Assembly (NCBI RefSeq): GCF_039888725.1
Contig: NZ_JBDQQN010000002.1
Span: 578,024 to 602,023 of the forward strand
Length of the DNA: 24,000 nt
Source: Solibacillus sp. CAU 1738
Lineage (GTDB): Bacteria > Bacillota > Bacilli > Bacillales_A > Planococcaceae
Reading direction: 5' to 3'
Shown: piece after piece, positions 1,551 to 20,849 of the stretch
Layout: the number at the start of each line of letters is the position of its first letter
Numbering within the stretch: position 1 is the first letter of the stretch
Position numbers and translations under genes: made by a program
Notes under the pieces: model-generated
The model's input: the letters and a program-made list of their open reading frames with translations, nothing else
Database searches by the model: none
Told to the model about the DNA's origin: nothing

Positions 1551-3008
1551 CTACTTTCCTAATAAGTTTTTGTAGCGATCCAATGGATTGGACTTGCTTG
1601 TGTATAGTTGATTTAGAGCTTGTGTTGTCATATCAACTAAATCATCATGTGCTGCATTCGGGAATGAAACAAGCTCCTCGATAACATCCTCTGACCAACT
1701 GCATATATTCGGATGGGGTAAAAATACATTGCCTGCCTCAAATAAAGGAGACACCGCATTTGCGCGTGCCTCCTTACCACCATTTGGATTAACGGGAATG
1801 ATACCGCTGATTTCATCTTTCAGCATCTCGATGATAGCTGTACCGTTCGCTTTATCCTCAATATATTTACTGCGTGCATTGGGCCACTTGTCGGACATAG
1901 CTCGTATTGCTTTCATTGTGTCAGCAAAACCCATACGTCTGTGGTCAATGTCCAACAAGAAATACTGCGCTTGCTTACGTGCCCATACACCACCAGCAAC
2001 AAAATCACTTGCTGACGAATCTTTAAACGTACAGTCCCACGATTGTGCTACCTTATCTAAATGAGTAGGCAATACGACTACATCATCACTTAAGCCCCAT
2101 TCACGCTTTTGTTCAGCTGTACGCACATAATAACGCACCCATTCGCGCTTGAATATGTTACCGCCTGCTGGGGATGGACGTTGTTGATATAACGAAGCCC
2201 ATGTACGGGAACCGACCTCGAATTTTTTAGCTTCTGCCCATTGCTCGTTAAAACCAAGTTCAGGACATAGCGCTTCACCAAATGAACGGCCTAATAAATC
2301 ATCATCGTCCTCTGCGATGGCTGGTAAGCGTAATCGAATCCAATTACGAGGGCTACGAGTAAGCAGGCGACCAATTAAATCATCTTCATTCCAACGTGTC
2401 ATGATCACTATTAGGCTTGCACCATCATGTAAACGCGTAGAAAGCGTAGCCTCCCATTCATCCCAAATATTATCTCGGATAGTTTGAGAACTTGCTTCCT
2501 TCATATTTTTAATAGGGTCATCGATAATCATTAAGTCAGCACCTTGACCAGTAATACTACCTCCGATACCAGTAGCAATCATGCCCCCACGTCTATCTTG
2601 TACGCCCCAGTCCTTCATAGCCCCATTCGATTCGGATAACCTTAAGTCAAACAGATTAGAAAACTCATTGAATTTATTGCGATTCAATCGACCGAATTTT
2701 GTCGCAAGTCCATCCGAATATGCAGCAGCTATAACACGTTTATCTGGATTTTTAGCCAAATAAAAAGACGGGAACGATTCTGTCACCGTCATGGATTTAC
2801 CGTGCCTTGGTGGCATTTCAATCAAAACAGATAACTGTTCTCCATCTGCTATACGTTGTAAAACGTCACATATTAATTCTGTATGACGGTAATGTTCGTA
2901 ATGCCCATGATGTACAAATTCTACATATTCACGGTAATTACGCTTAGCAAGCTCTCTCTGGGCTTCATTCGCTAATGTTTCAAGTTCCTTTTTTGATAGA
3001 GTTGGCAA
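1551..3008 (-). CDS. terL: Terminase large subunit
   Basis: 485 aa with a Walker A-like PPRHGKS and a Walker B-like LMIIDDP, plus a C-terminal nuclease-like half. It lies between terS and the portal. TTG start at 3008 follows GAGGAG and overlaps the terS end. Confidence 0.9.
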   Translation of the reverse strand: MPTLSKKELETLANEAQRELAKRNYREYVEFVHHGHYEHYRHTELICDVLQRIADGEQLSVLIEMPPRHGKSMTVTESFPSFYLAKNPDKRVIAAAYSDGLATKFGRLNRNKFNEFSNLFDLRLSESNGAMKDWGVQDRRGGMIATGIGGSITGQGADLMIIDDPIKNMKEASSQTIRDNIWDEWEATLSTRLHDGASLIVIMTRWNEDDLIGRLLTRSPRNWIRLRLPAIAEDDDDLLGRSFGEALCPELGFNEQWAEAKKFEVGSRTWASLYQQRPSPAGGNIFKREWVRYYVRTAEQKREWGLSDDVVVLPTHLDKVAQSWDCTFKDSSASDFVAGGVWARKQAQYFLLDIDHRRMGFADTMKAIRAMSDKWPNARSKYIEDKANGTAIIEMLKDEISGIIPVNPNGGKEARANAVSPLFEAGNVFLPHPNICSWSEDVIEELVSFPNAAHDDLVDMTTQALNQLYTSKSNPLDRYKNLLGK

Positions 3009-3480
3009 TAGCTCTCAACTCCTCATCTGTTAACTTACTCAAATCCATTTTAGTTTCAATTTCTCCGCTATGCTCAATTTCTTGTTTGTCAGTCCATAGA
3101 GTAAAACGCTTACCAATGAGTTCTGCAGCTTTAATACGCTCGCCCATTGTGGGAGGCATCTTTTTATCAATCACTTGCTCACCCATACCAATACCTTTTA
3201 ATGTAGCCGCAGTTGCTTCGCCACGTAGAATCGCTGTAAGTGTTTCGAGTATTTCTTGTTGATCAGCTACCCTTTCAGATTTCAACTCTTCCATGCGTTC
3301 ATCTATATAAAATTTTACGCTAACATTTGTTAACATTCGACTTCCTGCAGCTCTCGCTGTAGCTCCCTTCTTCACATTCGGATACGCCTTCAAATATGCA
3401 TCCGTAGCATTTCCTAGTTCGATATAGAAATCAACAAAAGCCTGCTGTTTCACTGTTAATTTACGTTCAATCAATGGCAT
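2980..3480 (-). CDS. terS: Terminase small subunit
   Basis: N-terminus (LTVKQQAFVDFYIELGNATDAYLKAYP) is typical of HTH-type small terminases and sits directly upstream of terL. The start is ambiguous: GTG 3483, ATG 3480 or TTG 3474. TTG has the best spacing to the GGGG at 3483-3486. Confidence 0.8.
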   Translation of the reverse strand: MPLIERKLTVKQQAFVDFYIELGNATDAYLKAYPNVKKGATARAAGSRMLTNVSVKFYIDERMEELKSERVADQQEILETLTAILRGEATAATLKGIGMGEQVIDKKMPPTMGERIKAAELIGKRFTLWTDKQEIEHSGEIETKMDLSKLTDEELRAIANSIKKGT

Positions 3481-3501
3481 CACCCCATTATGCTAATTGC
3501 T
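3479..3501 (-). repeat. Junction box copy 1 (ATCACCCCATTATGCTAATTGCT on the plus strand), native terS 5' junction
   Basis: This 23-mer is identical to 5392-5414 and differs at 2 positions from 5044-5066. It contains the GGGG that can serve as the terS SD. Confidence 0.9.
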
Positions 3502-3507
3502 AAATTT

Positions 3508-3537
3508 ATATAAAAGAAAAAGCACCCTTAGGTACTT
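3508..3537 (-). terminator. Intrinsic terminator after the 226-aa gene
   Basis: Minus strand reads AAGTACC-TAAG-GGTGCTT followed by TTTTCTTTTAT. It overlaps the stop codon at 3537-3539. Confidence 0.6.
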
Positions 3538-4217
3538 TATTCGCTAGTATGAAGATTTTTTATAAGTTTTTTAAATGTCTTGTTTATTTTAATTTGCCCA
3601 CCAGAATAGTTCAAAAATCCTCCAGTAATTTCGGAAATCAATCCTGTATTTTCTAGCCTTTTTACAATAAAATCAATATCATCTTCTTGAATCAAACACT
3701 TTTCAATTAATAATTCTCTCCACTTTATTTTCACTGAAAACTGAAGTTCATTTTCATGTTCGGATTTTTCGTACGTATTAAATGCATGATATATTACCGC
3801 AAGGGCCTTTATTTCAATTGGTGATAAATCTTTTAGTGAATATAAAAACTCTTCTACCAACCCCAAATCTTCAACATCTCCACGCAAGGCTGACATCAAT
3901 AATTTTGCATTCATTAACGATTTTTCTCGACTTCTGTTTTGGACTGAAGATTCAATAGCAATATTAAATATGTCATAATTTTCTTCGGATTCTAACCAAT
4001 TTACCAGAGTTACATCCTTCATTGCATTTATTTCCGAATATAAATCCTGTATAAAAAACTCGATTCTAGCCTGAATAAATTTATTTTCTCTACTTGAAAT
4101 TTTCTCGCTAATATACGGACCTAACCACGGTATTATTTGAATAACCCCTTTAAATTCTGCAGAGTTCATAAATCGATCTATACGTTTTTCAGGTAATATA
4201 TTCAATTCCCTTTCCAT
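3537..4217 (-). CDS. Hypothetical soluble protein, 226 aa (cassette gene A)
   Basis: Long ORF in an AT-rich cassette. The ORF-track start at 4226 is a GTG embedded in the SD GGAGGAGTG, so the in-frame ATG at 4217 is preferred. I recognise no family. Confidence 0.55.
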   Translation of the reverse strand: MERELNILPEKRIDRFMNSAEFKGVIQIIPWLGPYISEKISSRENKFIQARIEFFIQDLYSEINAMKDVTLVNWLESEENYDIFNIAIESSVQNRSREKSLMNAKLLMSALRGDVEDLGLVEEFLYSLKDLSPIEIKALAVIYHAFNTYEKSEHENELQFSVKIKWRELLIEKCLIQEDDIDFIVKRLENTGLISEITGGFLNYSGGQIKINKTFKKLIKNLHTSE

Positions 4218-4351
4218 TTCATTCACTCCTCCATTTTATAATATTTCAAGATAGGAAGTAAAAATCTTCAAAAAAATTACAGTATGATCGATAATCATTT
4301 TTCAGAGTAAAACTATAACATCTCTTTTCTAAATCTTTATTTTCCTTTTCA

Positions 4352-4936
4352 TTAACCTAACTCATTTACAATATCTTTTTCGTATTCTTTAAGCATTTCA
4401 ATAAATTCTTTCAATTTTTTTCTTACTTCAAACTTCTTGATATCGCTTATTAAATTATATGACTTAGCTAATTGCCCCCCCATTAATTCAGATTGTTTTA
4501 ATTCTGATAAAGCTTGAACAATATCTTTATATTTGTAATACAAATGAATATCTACTTTCATACATTTATCGTAAACATCTATATAATCCTCTAGTAATCT
4601 ATCAATCTCTTTTGGATAGTCTGGGATAATTGGATGGAACAAAACATTGTTGATTAAATTATGTTTTGTTCTAAGTTCATTTATTAACCTTATTTTTTCC
4701 GGTAGAGCTTTGAGCCCTTCAGTATTCTTATCATGCTTAATTGTTAATTTCACTCCTAAAAAGGTAATTCCTCCAGAAATCAAACCACCTAATATCGCTC
4801 CAATAAAACCTATTAATACACCTCCATCTATAGCTAATCCCTTAATTAAAAAGATATCTATAAATGCTGTGGCTGCCATAAAGCACAATAATCCTAATAT
4901 AAAAAAAATTAAAACGTCTTTCCATCTTTCGTTCAT
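4352..4936 (-). CDS. Predicted 2-TM membrane protein, 194 aa (cassette gene B), paralog of gene E
   Basis: ATG follows GGAGTAGGAGG. Two N-terminal hydrophobic helices include a glycine-rich segment (GFIGAILGGLISGGITFLGV), then a charged helical tail. It shares the motif GAxxGGxI..T..GV..TI...(L/I)P..I.L(I/L)N...H with the ORF at 6260-6769. Confidence 0.65.
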   Translation of the reverse strand: MNERWKDVLIFFILGLLCFMAATAFIDIFLIKGLAIDGGVLIGFIGAILGGLISGGITFLGVKLTIKHDKNTEGLKALPEKIRLINELRTKHNLINNVLFHPIIPDYPKEIDRLLEDYIDVYDKCMKVDIHLYYKYKDIVQALSELKQSELMGGQLAKSYNLISDIKKFEVRKKLKEFIEMLKEYEKDIVNELG

Positions 4937-4943
4937 TATTCAA

Positions 4944-4997
4944 CCTCCTACTCCATATTAGAGCAAAAGTCATACAAATACACTAATGTTTTACTAT
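4944..4997 (-). repeat. Leader/SD repeat, type I (copy upstream of gene B)
   Basis: By manual alignment, 50 of 54 positions are identical to 6778-6831. The repeat includes the SD GGAGTRGGAGG. Confidence 0.85.
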
Positions 4998-5043
4998 TTT
5001 ACTATATTTAAAACCACCTCCACCATCATTTGTTTATTTTGTA

Positions 5044-5066
5044 ATCACCCCGTTATGCTAGTTGCT
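5044..5066 (-). repeat. Junction box copy 2 (ATCACCCCGTTATGCTAGTTGCT)
   Basis: Two A-to-G differences from copies 1 and 3. It sits just after the hairpin that follows the 72-aa gene. Confidence 0.85.
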
Positions 5067-5080
5067 TATAAAATTGAAAT

Positions 5081-5102
5081 GCCACTTATTCACATAAGCG
5101 GC
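5081..5102 (-). terminator. Probable terminator hairpin after the 72-aa gene
   Basis: Minus strand reads GCCGCTTAT-GTGA-ATAAGTGGC (one G-U pair) followed by ATTTCAATTTTAT. The U tract is interrupted. Confidence 0.4.
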
Positions 5103-5109
5103 GTTGGAT

Positions 5110-5328
5110 TTAACCTAAAATATTCTTCAGGTTTTCAGTATGTGCTTCAAGGAATTGACTTTGTTCAGTTTTGTTTCTTATTACAAACTCATGTCTTCCT
5201 AAACCTGAAGAATCTTTTTTATCTTGGAAGTGACCTACAATTACAGTTCCGTTACCCTCTTCTAGAACTGTATGTTCCATTAGATAATTTCCAGAATTCA
5301 AGTTTTCGATAATTGTTTTTATATCCAT
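5110..5328 (-). CDS. Hypothetical small protein, 72 aa (cassette gene C)
   Basis: The ATG at 5328 lies 6 nt after GGAGTGGGAGGTG. The 90-aa ORF-track version starts upstream with no SD and simply translates the SD as MEWEV. Confidence 0.5.
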   Translation of the reverse strand: MDIKTIIENLNSGNYLMEHTVLEEGNGTVIVGHFQDKKDSSGLGRHEFVIRNKTEQSQFLEAHTENLKNILG

Positions 5329-5391
5329 TTTTCTCACCTCCCACTCCATCATAAAACAAACTGGAAGGTAATTCTTTAACATGATTTTGCT

Positions 5392-5414
5392 ATCACCCCA
5401 TTATGCTAATTGCT
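5392..5414 (-). repeat. Junction box copy 3 (ATCACCCCATTATGCTAATTGCT)
   Basis: Identical 23-mer to 3479-3501. It lies immediately after the terminator of the 214-aa gene. Confidence 0.9.
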
Positions 5415-5416
5415 TT

Positions 5417-5448
5417 ACGAAATAAATAAGCACCTTTAGTAGGTGCTT
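5417..5448 (-). terminator. Intrinsic terminator after the 214-aa gene
   Basis: Minus strand reads AAGCACCT-ACTAA-AGGTGCTT followed by ATTTATTT. The stem abuts the stop codon. Confidence 0.65.
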
Positions 5449-6092
5449 TACTTTGAATTTAATATCCAATTTGATGGAATTACTTCCTTATCACTAATTA
5501 ACTCTTCTTGACCTTCAATTATTAAATATATTTTTTGATATAAATCTCTATGAGAATATACATACTTAAATTTTTCTTTACTTGTTGTCGAGTATTTCAA
5601 CTCAATATTATCAAATTCCACTTTTAGAATTCCCTCAATATCATTAATATAGAATGGCAAAGGGATAAATATCTCTACATTTCTTCTCATATGATCTAAA
5701 TAAAAATCATAACAATTTTCTTCGTAAACATTTGAGTCCATCGTTAATTTTATTTGACAATCCATAATATATTCTGGATCCCCTATGAACTTAAACATAA
5801 AAAAATTCATAAAACCTTCAGTATGTATAGTAGCAATGTCGATATTTTTTTCATAATACTCAGAAAAGAGAATCTTAGATTCTGGGTGTCTATTTATTTC
5901 TTGTAATTTATAACTTCCTCTGATCTCTTCACATATAATATAAGGTCTAGCCTTCTTTACCCCCTCTTTTTCAATGGTTTTTAATTGATGACTCATTTGC
6001 ATCGTTGCTATCCAATACGCACCCATAACACCTATTAAACCACCAAATAAACTCAATATACCACTTGTTAATGTTGCATCTTCTGGTGTCAT
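5448..6092 (-). CDS. Predicted single-pass membrane protein, 214 aa (cassette gene D)
   Basis: ATG follows GGGGGTGGAAGGG. One N-terminal glycine-rich TM helix (GILSLFGGLIGVMGAYWIA), then a roughly 170-aa soluble domain. I recognise no family. Confidence 0.6.
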   Translation of the reverse strand: MTPEDATLTSGILSLFGGLIGVMGAYWIATMQMSHQLKTIEKEGVKKARPYIICEEIRGSYKLQEINRHPESKILFSEYYEKNIDIATIHTEGFMNFFMFKFIGDPEYIMDCQIKLTMDSNVYEENCYDFYLDHMRRNVEIFIPLPFYINDIEGILKVEFDNIELKYSTTSKEKFKYVYSHRDLYQKIYLIIEGQEELISDKEVIPSNWILNSK

Positions 6093-6259
6093 ATAATCCC
6101 TTCCACCCCCATCTTAAATAAAAAAAGAAGGTAATTCCTAATCACCTTTTTGCTAGTAAAATCTGAAGGATATTATTATAAAATTTGATAATATTCTTCC
6201 TCTAATTCCTTTATTAAATTTCCACATTCTGCGTAATAAGTTAAACATGTGTCCAATAG

Positions 6260-6769
6260 TTATTGTGTATTTGTGATTGTAGGTTCAAAATTCTTAACTT
6301 TTACACCTTCCAAATGAATATACAAATCAGAAGTTTGCTTAATAATCTTTTTATATAAATTATACATATCTTTTCCCATTACTAATAATTCATTGTTACT
6401 CATCCTATCGTTTAATTCTGAGTTAATATTAAATAAAAAAGTTTTCAAAGAAGTTTTATCCTCATTATCTTTTTTCATGAGTTCGATTTGAAAATCTAAA
6501 ATATATTGATGTTCTTTATTTAATAGTTTGATTAATTGCGGAATTTGACTTAAACTTTCTTTTCTTCTAGCTTCAATTATGGTTTTGTTAACTCCAATTA
6601 ACGTAATAGAACCACCAATAACCGCTCCAAAAAAGGCTATTATTCCAGCAACTAACGTATAATCCTTCACATCAAAGAAGTATGTATAAACTCCAAAAAA
6701 TATCAGCAGCATATTCAATATCAAAAGTGAAATAAATATTATGTACATAGAATTTTTTATATTATTCAA
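6260..6769 (-). CDS. Predicted 2-TM membrane protein, about 169 aa (cassette gene E), paralog of gene B
   Basis: TTG at 6769 lies 6 nt after GGAGTGGGAGGTG (alternative ATG at 6748). The ORF-track start at 6817 translates the leader/SD as MEWEV. Two hydrophobic helices including GIIAFFGAVIGGSITLIGV. Confidence 0.6.
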   Translation of the reverse strand: MNNIKNSMYIIFISLLILNMLLIFFGVYTYFFDVKDYTLVAGIIAFFGAVIGGSITLIGVNKTIIEARRKESLSQIPQLIKLLNKEHQYILDFQIELMKKDNEDKTSLKTFLFNINSELNDRMSNNELLVMGKDMYNLYKKIIKQTSDLYIHLEGVKVKNFEPTITNTQ

Positions 6770-6777
6770 TTTTATCA

Positions 6778-6831
6778 CCTCCCACTCCATAATAGAGCAA
6801 AAGGCATACAAATACACTAATATTTTACTAT
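6778..6831 (-). repeat. Leader/SD repeat, type I (copy upstream of gene E)
   Basis: 50 of 54 positions identical to 4944-4997. A degenerate junction-box relative follows at about 6850-6880 (CCGCCCCTAGCCTTATGCTACTCATTGGCT). Confidence 0.85.
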
Positions 6832-6892
6832 CCTCAAAACCACACCAAACTCCGCCCCTAGCCTTATGCTACTCATTGGCTGTTTGATGCAG

Positions 6893-6932
6893 TTTTCAAA
6901 ATAGAAAAACCACCTACCGAAGTAGATGGTTT
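6893..6932 (-). terminator. Strong intrinsic terminator downstream of the HNH gene region
   Basis: Minus strand reads AAACCATCTAC-TTCG-GTAGGTGGTTT: an 11-bp stem with one G-U pair and a UUCG loop, followed by TTCTATTTT. Confidence 0.7.
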
Positions 6933-7139
6933 GAATTGTGTTAGGCTCTAGTAACTGAAGCCCCTCATATATTTTTGTAGGACGAAGTCTTACAACCTCG
7001 GGGATAAAGAGCAGCTCCGTGCCTATCTCATATGGTACATGGGATTTTTTAAAACAAAAAACATTTTACATTTGTTCCTTTTGTTACATCCGTTACATTT
7101 GTTCCGAGCTTCTATAAAAGTAACAAGGATACAGATACT

Positions 7140-8081
7140 TTATTTACCAAAAATTTCATTGTAATGATACTTAATAAAGTTAGGATTTAAATCTGTTCTA
7201 GAATATGCTAAATCTTTTCCATGAAACAAATTATCAGTATTAATATGTATGATTTTCCCTGTTGTAGGTTCAATCGCTATTATTCCGTAATCAAATTCAA
7301 CGTGATGATTGGGACATAAAATTATAATATTACTCTTAATATCAGGACCTTGATGAATTCCACCTAATTTCTTCAAATGATGCCCTTCTGAATATTTTTT
7401 TTCTGAAGGTAATATTATTTGCTCTCCGCAAATTTGACATTTCCCATCATATTCTTTTTTTAGTTCTCTTACAATCTTAGTATCTCTTACGATTCTATTA
7501 ATAACAGATGATACACGTGTTGTCTGCCCATCTTCATCTCTAGTAGTACTTTCCTCTTCATCTCCAACTCTAATTGAAGTTTTAGATTCTACATCCATTG
7601 AATCTAAATCTATATTTAAAAATTCCTTTAATTTATTAAATAGTTCATCACTTACAAGTGCTAAGTATTTTTGAGCAGTTTTAAATATATTATTTTCTTC
7701 TGTGTAAAAAGATCTTTGTTTTGTTATTTCTATAAGAAATTCTCGATATTCACTTAAAAAATCCTCAACCCGTTTTTTTTCTTCAAATTCATGGTACCCA
7801 ATTAAAGGTATACGATAGTAAGTTTCATAACCACCCCATTTACCAGGAATAGGTGGAGCTACATGAACAATAGTATAAGCACTACTTACAAATGAAATTC
7901 CCCAAAATCTATGATTTTTGCCTTCTTTTGAACCTTTAACAGAATGAATTACCAAGTCACCTTCTTTTGGCAATTTCATTATATTCCAACTACTTGCACA
8001 TGGACTCCATAATACTTCACCTAACTCCCAACCTTCACCACCATGAACTGGGTTTGTTAATTCAACAAAAATATTCATCAT
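7140..8081 (-). CDS. HNH endonuclease fusion protein, 313 aa, with an unassigned N-terminal domain
   Basis: The C-terminus carries an HNH/zinc signature (CQICGEQI...EGHHLKKL...NIIILCPNHHVEFD). The roughly 190-aa N-terminus has GGEGWELGEVLWSP...EGDLVIHSVKG, which resembles N-terminal domains I associate with restriction-type nucleases. SD is AGAGGGGGAAG. Confidence 0.8.
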   Translation of the reverse strand: MMNIFVELTNPVHGGEGWELGEVLWSPCASSWNIMKLPKEGDLVIHSVKGSKEGKNHRFWGISFVSSAYTIVHVAPPIPGKWGGYETYYRIPLIGYHEFEEKKRVEDFLSEYREFLIEITKQRSFYTEENNIFKTAQKYLALVSDELFNKLKEFLNIDLDSMDVESKTSIRVGDEEESTTRDEDGQTTRVSSVINRIVRDTKIVRELKKEYDGKCQICGEQIILPSEKKYSEGHHLKKLGGIHQGPDIKSNIIILCPNHHVEFDYGIIAIEPTTGKIIHINTDNLFHGKDLAYSRTDLNPNFIKYHYNEIFGK

Positions 8082-8281
8082 CTTCCCCCTCTATACTTCA
8101 TTTACTAAATTAGTATCACAAATAATTATAAACTATTCTGACAAATAATAATTTAACATTAGCATTCTCCTAGCTTTATTGGTATCAAAGCTGGTATCAC
8201 TAAACAAAAAAGCTTGGAATAACCCCCATAAATAAGGCTATCCAAACTTTTTCTAGTTGTTTTTTAATTATACCCGCTCTA

Positions 8282-8704
8282 TTACAACACTAGCATTTGT
8301 TTTAACACGTTGTTTCTGACCCTGAATATTGTTGTACTTGATAGCTTCATGTGCTTACCAATTGACCTCATACTATCACCATTCAGCAAACGATGCAGAA
8401 TCTCCATTTCTCTATCGCCTACTACTAACTGAATGCGCTTTTGTACCTCTGACACTTTCCGACGGTACTGTTGAATACGGAAGCCACCATATTGAGTACG
8501 ACGATGAACCTCGTAAAATACAGGATCACTTGTCCCACCACTTGCTTTTGGTAATGTTGAATCAATTCCATAACTAGCAACCTTTGCCCCTTTAATAACA
8601 GCTACATCCATTTCAGCCTCTTTGATTGTTTCAATCATCCAGTGATAATCTTCAATCCACTGCAATAAGTTGCCCTCTGATACAAATATTTGCCCTTTAC
8701 TCAT
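8282..8704 (-). CDS. Putative phage late-gene transcriptional activator (sigma-70 region-4-like / ArpU-RinA-like)
   Basis: 140 aa. The C-terminus (REMEILHRLLNGDSMRSIGKHMKLSSTTIFRVRNNVLKQM) looks like a region-4 HTH. It sits between the replication genes and the packaging genes. SD is AGGGGG. Confidence 0.6.
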   Translation of the reverse strand: MSKGQIFVSEGNLLQWIEDYHWMIETIKEAEMDVAVIKGAKVASYGIDSTLPKASGGTSDPVFYEVHRRTQYGGFRIQQYRRKVSEVQKRIQLVVGDREMEILHRLLNGDSMRSIGKHMKLSSTTIFRVRNNVLKQMLVL

Positions 8705-8732
8705 AAGCTGCCCCCTATGCTATAATAATAGT

Positions 8733-8796
8733 GTCATCCTTACATAAGAGGAACCTATCATCACCGCAGCGCCTTGTACTCGCTGCGGCTTTTTAT
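8733..8796 (+). ncRNA. Candidate about 65-nt antisense RNA opposite the 5' UTR of the late-activator gene
   Basis: Extended -10 TGCTATAAT at 8718-8726. Intrinsic terminator CCGCAGCG-N9-CGCTGCGG plus CTTTTTAT at 8764-8796, correctly oriented only for the plus strand. Confidence 0.3.
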
Positions 8797-8878
8797 ACTA
8801 AAAATTCCCTTCATAAATATTATCTATTTATTTAAAATTTACGATATAATGTACTAACATATATCTTAAGGGGCTAGT

Positions 8879-9163: not shown

Positions 9164-9513
9164 TACATTGTCGAAACACTTTAGTGTCTAATGGAAGTGG
9201 CTTACCATTACTGATGATGACAGGCATTTTGATACCTACATTTTTAGTTTTTTGTATATTAACCGAACTTAAAGGAGTGGATATTATTTCTAAAATCCTT
9301 TATCACTTAAATCTGTTAAGTTCTATCATCACTATTTTTACCTTTCTTAAAGCCACTTCCTCTTCTTCTAGGTTTAACCTACTGATGAGCTTGTGAAATT
9401 CAAGCGAAAAGAAGGAATGTTTTTCGTTTTTTCCCTATCAATCGTTAATTCTGCTCTTGGCTGCATATCATAAAACTTCCTAATAACCACCTCTTACTAC
9501 TCAACAAAATATT

Positions 9514-12532: not shown

Positions 12533-13330
12533 TTATTCTGTTACTTCATCAAATGTTGGTGCATCAATGAAAAATTCTGTATCTGGTGTGATATCCTTCA
12601 TTTCACGTTTCGGAGCTGTCCCCTCGTCATAAGCTACCTGCTGTTGCATTTCGACGCTAATCGGCAAGTACTTCCACATGTGACGTACAACCGTCTTTTT
12701 CGCCATTTCCTCGTAGTCTGTTGCCCAAGGTGAATATGAAGAATTAGCAGCCTTAGAACGTCCCTTCCGCTTTTCGATTTCACTCTTTGGCATAAATTCA
12801 AATTGATAACCGCCATCTTTAAAACGCGCTACTGCATAAGCACCAATGAATTGTCCTCGATCTGATTCCATCGATGGCTTGTGTACTAATTTTTGCTCAA
12901 GCCCAAGTTCAAACTCGAAGTGATCCTTTTCGTAAACTGCATGAGAATAGATGGATTCAATATGGCCAGAACGACGAGCTAGGTCAATCATGCCTTTATA
13001 GCCGATGATGAACTGGACTTCGGTAATACCTTTTTTATTGTTTTTGAATGGTAGCAAGTAACAGTGACCCATTAGCCCAGGCTCTAAACCTAATTGCGCA
13101 GCTTGCATTACAGCACCTAGAAGAGAAGAGACATCCGCTTCTCGTAATGCTGGAGTAGTACGAATTGTTGTCATTGCTAAACGCATTACTCTGTCGATAT
13201 CCATATGTTTTGGTAATGCCTGCGCCATTGCCGGAGCCATTTGTTTAAGATAATCCTCGATTGTTTTTGGTTTTTTTTGTTCAGCTGGTGCCTGTTGCAT
13301 TTGTTGTTTTAATTCGTCTGTAGTTGCCAT
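12533..13330 (-). CDS. recT: RecT-family single-strand annealing recombinase
   Basis: 265 aa with overall RecT-like sequence (ALREADVSSLLGAVMQAAQLGLEPG...GYKGMIDLARRSG). It is paired with a YqaJ exonuclease immediately upstream. Confidence 0.9.
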   Translation of the reverse strand: MATTDELKQQMQQAPAEQKKPKTIEDYLKQMAPAMAQALPKHMDIDRVMRLAMTTIRTTPALREADVSSLLGAVMQAAQLGLEPGLMGHCYLLPFKNNKKGITEVQFIIGYKGMIDLARRSGHIESIYSHAVYEKDHFEFELGLEQKLVHKPSMESDRGQFIGAYAVARFKDGGYQFEFMPKSEIEKRKGRSKAANSSYSPWATDYEEMAKKTVVRHMWKYLPISVEMQQQVAYDEGTAPKREMKDITPDTEFFIDAPTFDEVTE

Positions 13331-19640: not shown

Positions 19641-20849
19641 TTGATTATGGGATATTTCGTTAAATTAGAAAAAAATAAATACAAACTTATTGCTGATTTA
19701 GGGTACAGAGGAAATAAGCGTATTCGCAAAACACGTAGGGTTGAAGCTAAAAATGATCGTGAAGCCCAGCGACTTCTAGTATTATTTGAAGAAGAAGTTT
19801 TACAGGATAAAGATGTTCATTTTACAAACATAGATAACACTACGTTAGCTAATTTTTATCCAAAGTGGCGCGATAATCATGCTAAACAGTTTTACTCACC
19901 AAAAACATTTCAAAATTACTGTTCGTATATTGAAAATCGAATTTTACCTATGTTTGGCGAATTTAAAATTAAAGATATTAAAAAGGTTGATGTTGTATTT
20001 TTTGTTGCGGATCTGTCGAAAAACGGTAGACGTACAGATAACAAACGTTCTGATGGTCCAGATGGTAAACTAAGTGCTTCATCCATCAGGAATATTCATA
20101 AAGCCTTCTCAAACATGATGAATACCGCTTTTGAATGGAATATGATTACTGAAAATCCTTGTATTGGTGTTAGGTTACCAAAAGTTATTACTCCGGAAGG
20201 ACAAGCTTATTCTGAGTCAGAGGTTACTCAGTTGCTCGAAAGGTTGCAGCAAAGAGCAAAACCAATAAAAAGACTAATTGTTCAATTCGCTATTGTTAGT
20301 GGTGCACGTTTAGGTGAAATAGCAGCTCTAGAGTTAAAACATTTGGATGCAGAAAATAATTCTGTGCTTATTGAACAAACGATATCGACCATAGTTAGTG
20401 ATAACAAAGAAGAACGGCAATTTTTAAAAGAAACCAAAGGTAAAAAGAAACGTAGAGTTACTATTCCTCATTATGTTATGGAAGATTTATTATTACTAGC
20501 TAAAGTAAAAAAGTCTCAACTTGATGAAATTGGGGATGAACGAGAATGGAAAGGACATGTATTTTTATTCTCTAGTGATTTAGGTAAGCCTTATAACGTT
20601 TCCTCTCTTAGTGCATGGTGGCGAAAATTCATAAGAAAAAACCCTGATTTATCACAGATACGATTCCATGAATTACGTCACACATCAGCATCACTTTTAA
20701 TACATGCTGGCGAGCACCCGAGAGTTATTCAAGGACGACTTGGCCACGCAGATATAAAAATGACAATGAACACATACGGTCATTTATTACCTGAATCAGA
20801 TCAACGCGCTAGTTCGTATTTCGATAAATTTTTTGAAAAAGAAGAGTGA
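19641..20849 (+). CDS. int: Tyrosine recombinase / phage integrase
   Basis: 402 aa. The C-terminal catalytic pattern is ARLGEI...HELRHTSASLL...LGHADIKMTMNTYGHL. SD AGGAGA. Start is TTG 19641 or ATG 19647. Confidence 0.9.
   Translation: MIMGYFVKLEKNKYKLIADLGYRGNKRIRKTRRVEAKNDREAQRLLVLFEEEVLQDKDVHFTNIDNTTLANFYPKWRDNHAKQFYSPKTFQNYCSYIENRILPMFGEFKIKDIKKVDVVFFVADLSKNGRRTDNKRSDGPDGKLSASSIRNIHKAFSNMMNTAFEWNMITENPCIGVRLPKVITPEGQAYSESEVTQLLERLQQRAKPIKRLIVQFAIVSGARLGEIAALELKHLDAENNSVLIEQTISTIVSDNKEERQFLKETKGKKKRRVTIPHYVMEDLLLLAKVKKSQLDEIGDEREWKGHVFLFSSDLGKPYNVSSLSAWWRKFIRKNPDLSQIRFHELRHTSASLLIHAGEHPRVIQGRLGHADIKMTMNTYGHLLPESDQRASSYFDKFFEKEE

Follow-up and report, generated by a model that had tools for sequence, protein, structure and literature searches.

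The stretch of 24,000 nucleotides from Solibacillus sp. CAU 1738 analysed in this study (positions 578,024 to 602,023 of contig NZ_JBDQQN010000002.1, hereafter the window) is prophage DNA, in which all the genes of the region considered here lie on the minus strand. Read in that direction, a late regulator gene is followed by a restriction endonuclease gene, a candidate late promoter with a noncoding leader RNA, five genes referred to as A to E, and the packaging genes terS, terL and portal (Table 1). Intrinsic terminators follow genes B, C and E, and three copies of a 23-nt sequence, ATCACCCCATTATGCTAATTGCT, hereafter the box, stand at the heads of C, of the D/E pair and of terS. The interval between the regulator gene and terS is probably an accessory slot of a temperate phage for moron or defence genes, to which units appear to have been added by recombination at conserved heads.

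Two copies of the box are exact and one has 2 mismatches, as reported in the first-pass annotation, which had been made from the letters of the window alone, and no such copies arose in 100 shuffles. Beyond the 23-mer the match between copies stops abruptly, their flanking sequences being unrelated. Each copy is preceded by a T-tailed hairpin, and a further one ends the leader RNA (6932-6907), so that the earlier claim of a terminator before every copy was borne out at all three; 5 terminator-like T-tailed hairpins were found in the region versus 2.0 expected. The G+C content is 26-32% across 3500-8100 and ~40% on both sides, including terS, terL and the portal gene, in agreement with an earlier estimate by eye that the cassettes are the richer in AT. 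By an exact-match scan of 185,579 species genomes, the box was detected at 21 loci in Lysinibacillus, Solibacillus, Cytobacillus and Bacillus, one per contig and each at the packaging genes of a prophage, and also in 35 viral contigs. Since the box is nearly always a single copy in these 21 plus 35 loci, it is no generic repeat of the host; had it been one, the first-pass annotation would by its own statement have stood refuted. Many copies scattered over host chromosomes, as for REP/MITE-like elements, were not found in the scan.

In about 60 related loci (numbered with the prefix L), the box stands ahead of terS or of whichever packaging gene comes first, which confirms that copy 1 is the native terS junction. 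A terminator and then the T-rich sequence ATTTTACAA lie ahead of the box in 54 of 63 distinct instances. The first gene downstream is of at least five kinds, among which are two versions of the Terminase_2 terS, a small-terminase-like protein of helix-turn-helix (HTH) type, a 110-aa unknown protein, and a leader with another type of terS. Because 48 clusters of upstream flanks are joined to 18 clusters of downstream flanks, in 57 combinations, among the 68 instances with enough flanking sequence, the box is, as judged from these flanks, a mosaic joint as well as the conserved head of the packaging operon. The same diversity bears on whether the box could be a pac site or a binding site of TerS, present in several copies as a guide for the terminase: the pac sites of some Bacillus headful phages (SPP1) do lie at the 5' end of terS, where the box stands, but the small-terminase genes behind the box are of unrelated families and one first gene is not a terminase gene, the TerL proteins encoded downstream of it are just ~30% identical among phages, and its copies are 350-1900 bp apart with genes between them, so that this role is hardly credible. 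Arrays with more than one box occur elsewhere, with two copies in L018 and three in L038/L046 (two in the shorter fragment L046).

Two observations were made around the box in relatives. In terS types 2 and 5 (L011, L018, L001), the conserved GCCATTG that follows the box is in frame with neither ATG nor TTG, which implies an ATT start codon or a start further downstream, the nucleotide block being kept whatever the frame; a leaderless terS mRNA beginning at the ATG inside the box, considered by eye as a candidate, was rejected because that ATG is out of frame in these two types. In L045 (3993-4061 and 9519-9592 in the stored orientation), the other strand carries a tRNA gene ~100 nt away from the box, and a fragment resembling domain V/VI of a group II intron lies at the contig end.

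The content of the slot is highly variable. In 23 non-redundant loci carrying both regulator and box, the regulator-to-terS slot is 1.4-4.8 kb long, and that of the window is tied for the longest and contains the most boxes. The 80 slot open reading frames (ORFs) formed 66 clusters, 56 of them singletons, with predicted transmembrane (TM) segments in 24. A conserved junction with variable number and content of cassettes, as proposed in the first-pass annotation, was thus seen across the relatives, with scars at the edges of the box; the same five genes in every relative, which would have spoken against it, were found together in none. A megablast search of 2900-8800 against the INPHARED phages gave no match. 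Cargo in relatives includes DarG, AbiLi/AbiLii, ShosA/ShosT, PDC-S31, RES, caspase and an AriA-like protein, with DarG, AbiL and Shosta being defence systems already known. In the window, the gene formerly taken as an HNH gene bounding the interval on the side away from terS is, by its family matches, cargo for a TagI-like type IV restriction enzyme and not a packaging HNH gene. Its 313-aa product matched PDB 6ghs (TagI; E=2e-16), PADLOC mREase_IV, the NCBIfam PT-DNA restriction model and Pfam HNH_2, with an N-terminal domain of no known family, and the gene, of ~29% G+C, forms a terminator-bounded unit of its own. The proximity of this gene to terS is not native; what stays fixed is terS on one side and, on the other, the late regulator gene together with its promoter.

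Genes A to E matched no family in Pfam, PHROGs, PADLOC or NCBIfam, and gene E gave no match against PDB sequences. Relatives of the cargo genes themselves were identified in other slots: partial ones of A in L024, L008, L055 and L052, an ORF of L038 with 41% identity to B over 211 aa, one of L008 with 34% identity to D over 173 aa, and a gene C product of 86% amino-acid identity in L032. A, B and D have in common a glycine-rich TM motif, G..IGG.I..GV, visible in the DNA too (4796-4822, 6018-6044 and 6623-6649) and present also in slot proteins of L052, L055, L019 and L071, which suggests that these small membrane proteins form a family whose C-terminal domains vary. Small zinc-ribbon-like ORFs (~50-73 aa, CxxC...CxC) were seen after the late promoter and leader in L111 (~12,900-13,120) and L113 (11190-11339), and none in the window.

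Table 1. Features of the window between the packaging genes and the integrase gene, listed in the direction of transcription of the slot
Feature	Position	Strand	Basis or remark
Prophage integrase	19641-20849		ORF and family searches; followed by repressor, replication and recombination genes
Late regulator gene	8282-8704	-	140 aa; LuxR/GerE-type HTH resembling sigma-70 region 4
Intrinsic terminator 3' of regulator gene	8217-8243	-	Terminator scan
TagI-like type IV (modification-dependent) HNH restriction endonuclease gene	7140-8081	-	Family and PDB matches
Candidate regulator-dependent late promoter	7027-7105	-	Repeats GGAACAAATGTAAC at 7105-7062; -10-like TATGAG at 7032-7027
Conserved noncoding leader RNA after candidate promoter	6933-7026	-	Conservation in ~30 loci
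Intrinsic terminator closing leader RNA	6907-6932	-	Terminator scan
HP-A hairpin, head of cassette A	6833-6900	-	Fold and conservation
A-type leader with Shine-Dalgarno (SD) sequence GGGAGGTGA	6770-6832	-	93% identical to D leader
Gene A	6260-6769	-	ORF, TM prediction; 169 aa, 2 predicted TM segments, orphan
B leader (C-type)	6093-6259	-	Repeat family D1, 71% to C leader; preceded by no terminator, box or HP
Gene B	5448-6092	-	ORF, TM prediction; 214 aa, 1 predicted TM segment, orphan
Intrinsic terminator	5428-5448	-	Terminator scan
Box copy 2, exact	5392-5414	-	Repeat search; fused straight to cassette leader
C-type leader with SD GGGAGGTGAG	5329-5391	-	Repeat and relative alignments
Gene C	5110-5328	-	ORF; 72 aa
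Intrinsic terminator	5081-5102	-	Terminator scan
Box copy 3, 2 mismatches	5044-5066	-	Repeat search, L032 alignment; part of C + terminator + box block
Remnant of type-4 terS leader ending in SD GGAGGTGGT	5013-5043	-	L048 alignment
A-type cassette leader	4937-5012	-	Joined to type-4 remnant at microhomology GTGGT(T)
Gene D	4352-4936	-	ORF, TM prediction; 194 aa, 3 predicted TM segments
Gene E	3537-4226	-	ORF; 229 aa, soluble orphan; own leader 4227-4351
Intrinsic terminator	3519-3538	-	Terminator scan
Box copy 1, exact, native head of packaging operon	3479-3501	-	-10-like CATAAT and SD GGGGTGA inside
terS (Terminase_2)	2980-3483	-	Pfam E=2.5e-26, phrog_51; start probably ATG 3480 or TTG 3474
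terL (Terminase_6, headful type)	1551-3008	-	Pfam and PHROGs

Separate analysis of the unit heads indicated how the array was put together. The A and D leaders, for which near-identity had been noted at 4944-4997 and 6778-6831, are 93% identical across 55 nt (4943-4997 and 6777-6831), and the second leader type, formerly placed upstream of C and D, heads C and B instead (5334-5392 and 6097-6155). Of the layout first proposed, in which four boxes enclose E+D, C and B+A, only three boxes stood; A+B is headed by a hairpin (HP), and B and E have leaders of their own. The head of D/E (5102-4937) consists of terminator, box and 31 nt of type-4 terS leader up to its SD, 5074-5013 matching L048 with 93.7% identity (63 nt, E=2e-19), and then passes into a cassette leader of A type where GTGGT(T) provides microhomology with the 3' arm of the HP. 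Next to it, the block 5353-5044, made up of gene C, its terminator and box copy 3, aligns at 86.5% identity with L032 1727-2037; in that locus the box of the block lies directly ahead of terS, and HP-B, not a box, heads gene C. At the head of C, the box runs straight into AGCAAAA..., fused exactly where leaders begin after an HP (that is, between ..UUUUGAG and AGCAAAAAG), and the same fusion of box to AGCA was identified in L018 (83%). In L005, L020, L030, L034, L038 and L055, truncated terS 5' codons follow the box and cargo comes next. The junctions thus vary in position, lying in the terS leader, in the terS codons or at the start of a cassette leader, and the breakpoints between related genomes coincide with the box motif. 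These junctions, in which the history of recombination can be read, though not the order and timing of its events, point to unequal crossovers that put the cassette leader of one phage behind the terS head of another, together with homologous exchange in shared heads.

The scars also bear on whether the terS upstream region was merely duplicated in tandem in this prophage, by slippage or unequal sister exchange, with cassettes inserted later. Copies 1 and 2 are indeed 100% identical and both carry the rarer T variant AGCAATTAG. The identity nevertheless ends exactly at the 23-mer between unrelated flanks, and copy 3 precedes a foreign terS-family leader and travels with gene C as a block known from L032. 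The foreign flanks of the boxes in effect exclude such a duplication, which we regard as very improbable.

The regulator matched Pfam GerE and phrog_1058, and 130 homologues were identified in Lysinibacillus/Solibacillus prophages, some with Sigma70_r4 and one, from Solibacillus sp. CAU 1738, 100% identical; no match was obtained against PDB sequences or the NCBIfam RinA and ArpU models, the exact-sequence look-up returned no record, and a single-protein locus search gave just one relative. The layout of repeats, -10-like element and noncoding stretch found in front of the cassettes recurs in relatives, with a nearly invariant transcribed core GGAGGTAGGTCGGCGCGG... Repeat clusters of the window type were detected in 13 of 18 loci with a regulator at least 61% identical and in 0 of 25 at 50% or below, and other regulator subfamilies have at the same place repeats such as ACGCATATGACGCAA, TTGCCATAC, ATGTTCCAA or GGCACAAAT. 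Since the repeats co-vary with the regulator subfamily, the cluster is read as the site of the regulator. No regulator-type repeats were found beside the box and, because the box occurs with regulators of 23% to 100% identity to that of the window, we infer that the promoter of the regulator is the repeat element at 7105-7027 and not the box.

In these respects the regulator appears analogous to the Ltr (RinA/ArpU/LtrA-C) activators of Gram-positive phages, which recognise DNA repeats upstream of terS that are particular to each regulator (Quiles-Puchalt et al. 2013, PMC3753634); each activator is specific to its own site, and a terminator separates ltr from the terS promoter (PMC3753634). Regulator-specific repeats lie upstream of the candidate promoter here as well, and one Ltr family is Sigma70_r4-like, the window regulator having, by comparison at the domain level, a GerE/Sigma70_r4-like HTH as in LtrA. 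It differs in matching no RinA/ArpU model, and the distance to terS is another: in staphylococcal and enterococcal phages the late start site is 28-118 bp from terS (PMC3753634), whereas here the repeat promoter is separated from terS by 0.1-0.4 kb of conserved noncoding RNA, 1-5 kb of cargo and 2-5 terminators. In the window itself, four intrinsic terminators intervene, and late transcription probably reads through them, since the likely promoter of the regulator is upstream of all the A-E cassettes. The HP lies only ~28 nt from the start codon in L073 and L092, and in L113 a terminator abuts the SD of terS without any box; as these three loci leave no room for a promoter, transcription across terminators seems to be built into the phage group.

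The leader RNA following the candidate promoter has a core, GGAGGTAGGWCGG..., and a partner, ACTTCGTCC, that are conserved in the same ~30 loci; it is ~100 nt long in the window and ~400 nt in L071, L091 and L099 (candidate promoter and leader together at 8293-8770 of L071 as oriented), and no match to it was found in Rfam. Directly after its terminator, and ahead of the SD-bearing leader of cassette A, lies the hairpin HP-A, UUUGAAAACUGCAUCAAACAGCC-loop-GGGCGGAGUUUGGUGUGGUUUUGAG in the minus sense. A degenerate fourth box formerly placed at 6850-6880 was not seen by a box profile (nhmmer, E<=10) and turned out to be the loop of this hairpin. HPs are conserved in most related loci (~90, in the series L001-L110), HP-A being found in 73 IMG/VR stretches, and a second family, HP-B, has other arm sequences in the same architecture. 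Of 89 HP loci, 56 have one copy, 32 two and 1 three, and a terminator precedes 89 of 94 instances. The sense RNA of HP-A folds with -25.7 kcal/mol (z -5.3) and the antisense with -11.9, the sense strand being the more stable in 95 of 95 distinct HP instances, and G.U pairs exceed A.C in the stems by 146 to 6, a bias that argues for selection of the structure on the gene-sense strand, that is, for HP acting as RNA. Rfam scans of the window, of relatives with long HP loops and of the long leader RNA revealed neither HP-A nor HP-B, giving only a sub-threshold hammerhead, tRNAs and noise. The loop in relatives is an unrelated sequence of ~20 nt or an insert of ~95 nt; the ~95-nt HP-A inserts are of at least three sequence types (one in L045, L008, L037, L055, L028, L002 and L020, another in L015, and another in L016/L051), with internal hairpins that look compensatory between types, e.g. 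GUAUCU..AGAUAC versus GUAUCG..CGAUAC, and without Rfam match. HP was also considered as a site for the activator and rejected by eye, the distance to the -10-like element ranging from 23 to 44 nt.

Self-contained units between short conserved sites with sharp homology edges would also be expected if the box or the HP were the site of a dedicated recombinase that captures and excises cassettes as in integrons, and the two imperfectly complementary arms of HP with a variable centre of 20-95 nt superficially resemble attC. Yet no recombinase gene lies in the slot of the window or in those of 22 of 23 delimited loci; among 33 scanned cargo proteins from relatives, a single slot ORF matched Pfam Phage_integrase (5.6e-23), and the sole integrase of the window lies 12 kb from the slot, no IntI-type integrase being adjacent to it. 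The box has no inverted repeat or dyad symmetry by repeat search, and as an attC the HP was rejected by eye, the outer ends of its arms, GAAAAC/GUUUUG, mismatching the R''/R' core sites (RYYYAAC/GTTRRRY). The varied positions of the junctions are typical of illegitimate plus homologous recombination and not of a fixed crossover, and the strand asymmetry of HP fits an RNA. An integron-like system is therefore highly unlikely.

The explanation that we favour is that the slot would be assembled from self-contained units, each closed by an intrinsic terminator and each carrying one of a few kinds of interchangeable head: HP plus leader with SD, leader alone, or the 23-nt box. The box would normally be the sole head of the packaging operon, directly on terS, and extra boxes would come from unequal recombination between related phages, in which a crossover at short homology puts the terS head of one phage onto the cassette leader of another; homologous exchange inside the shared box could then move the resulting blocks, so that the array would grow with the essential genes of either parent unharmed. 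At the late stage, the regulator would switch on the repeat promoter, downstream of the restriction gene and upstream of A-E, and transcripts beginning with the conserved leader RNA would cross the cassette terminators and reach terS. In the lysogen, these terminators may shield terS from cassette expression. HP hairpins would work as RNA, for instance as processing or stabilising sites, and the box would serve mainly as translation-initiation region or boundary of the first late gene and not as a site for the regulator. For this last part, a segment for initiation or boundary transcribed mainly from upstream, our confidence falls a little short of even.

Several points weigh against this account. 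Since exact matches to the box or HP served to retrieve the loci, the conservation of these elements is in part a result of that choice; in relatives retrieved through the regulator or HP the box is often absent. The promoter, the readthrough and the roles of the RNAs are all inferred from sequence, and RNAalifold gave plausible folds for HP-A and the leader RNA with essentially no covariation in the former and none in the latter, owing to the near-invariant sequence within each family. A near-invariant block of 23 nt exceeds the conservation usually seen in ribosome-binding regions, and the box contains, right after the terminator, a good -10-like CATAAT followed by GGG, so that it could be a promoter.

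As a promoter, either late or recognised by the host sigma-A, the box would form with the preceding terminator a composite terminator/promoter as in the PeSLs of T4-like phages, with each copy starting a transcript of its own, C, D/E and terS under common regulation and the cassettes shuffled by recombination between copies. The CATAAT (or an overlapping TAGCAT) with its GGG discriminator follows the terminator in 54 of 63 instances, a promoter scan scored TTTATA-16-CATAAT at copy 1, a similar TATRAT plus GGRG motif is common to the candidate late promoter and every cassette leader, and both promoter and terminator activities of the precedent were shown experimentally (PMC2839356). On the other hand, the box has no -35 element at 16-18 nt and no adjoining repeats of the regulator type, and its independence of the regulator is at odds with the site-specific Ltr activators (PMC3753634). 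A start 7 nt past CATAAT would exclude the SD GGGGTGA from the mRNA, a constitutive promoter on terS would harm the lysogen, and L113 has a terminator ahead of terS without any box. A promoter role of this kind is a possibility that we rate well below an even chance. -10-like hexamers were found in every head, those of the window without convincing -35 and some leaders of relatives with -35-like TTACAT/TTACAA at 17-18 nt. Two further candidates were rejected by eye, a sigma-A promoter with a TTTACA -35, for which the spacing is 7-10 nt, and a sporulation-sigma promoter, of which the -35 was unmatched.

How the polymerase would pass the terminators is another matter. It is conceivable, if rather unlikely, that the conserved leader RNA of 100-400 nt makes RNA polymerase terminator-resistant in the manner of put or EAR elements, with HP-A, HP-B and the box as adaptors of processing or translation. 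Were this so, an antitermination leader would let any terminator-bearing defence cassette enter the slot without silencing the packaging genes.

Morons, in the concept of Hendrix and Juhala, are extra genes between genes that are adjacent in relatives, with deviant composition and a factor-independent terminator downstream; those of lambdoid phages stand inside the late operon, where antiterminated transcription ignores terminators, and often serve the lysogen or defence. The slot agrees well with this description, as variable extra genes of deviant G+C lie between fixed genes and terminators follow B, C, E and the leader RNA. Unlike lambdoid morons, however, the units are here stacked in tandem at one site with common conserved heads, and the promoters are putative and the antitermination presumed. 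Prophage defence hotspots such as those of P2/P4 likewise have a fixed position in related prophages and highly variable anti-phage systems, whereas the regulator-to-terS position, with its heads of conserved RNA or box, is peculiar to the present phage group.

The PeSLs, motifs composed of terminator and promoter by which modules are shuffled in T4-like phages (Arbiol et al. 2010, PMC2839356; Comeau et al. 2014, PMC4122927), resemble the present heads in being short conserved motifs that include a terminator stem-loop and flank orphan genes in a hyperplastic region, with indel and replacement breakpoints at the motifs and shuffling by recombination between motif copies; within 3.4 kb of the window, terminator plus box occurs three times and terminator plus HP once. 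The hosts of the present motifs are in contrast temperate Gram-positive prophages of siphovirus type, with one slot only, bounded by terS and the late regulator/promoter, with heads of several kinds (HP-A, HP-B, leaders, box) and with a conserved part after the terminator that is only a candidate promoter, and several joints are illegitimate fusions and not clean motif-to-motif exchanges. The first-pass annotation knew of no described mechanism that fits; morons and PeSLs fit closely (PMC2839356, PMC4122927), and in our judgement the case is one of morons shuffled in PeSL style, without a categorically new mechanism. It extends both concepts to Gram-positive temperate phages, with scars at the junctions that show growth of an array by unequal recombination at conserved heads, and it adds a previously undescribed hotspot of anti-phage and accessory genes, between late regulator and terS, in prophages of Lysinibacillus, Solibacillus and Bacillus. 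The box, HP-A, HP-B and the repeat promoter are landmarks for systematic harvesting of this cargo, which is mostly orphan. It also raises the question of how late transcription crosses two to five intrinsic terminators, for which the three unannotated conserved RNA elements are candidates.

Two minor elements were noted near the regulator gene. The sub-threshold Rfam hit is a type III hammerhead ribozyme match at 9367-9409 on the plus strand (35 bits versus a gathering score of 48.5; E=3.3e-4), with the cores CUGAUGAG and CGAAA intact; the phage genes are on the other strand, and the match, which falls upstream of the regulator where coding is poor, was found in none of the four related loci searched for it. 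Right after the terminator of the regulator gene, two direct copies of GATACCA, 5 nt apart (8180-8198, minus strand), are located ~45 nt ahead of a TATAAT in front of the restriction gene.

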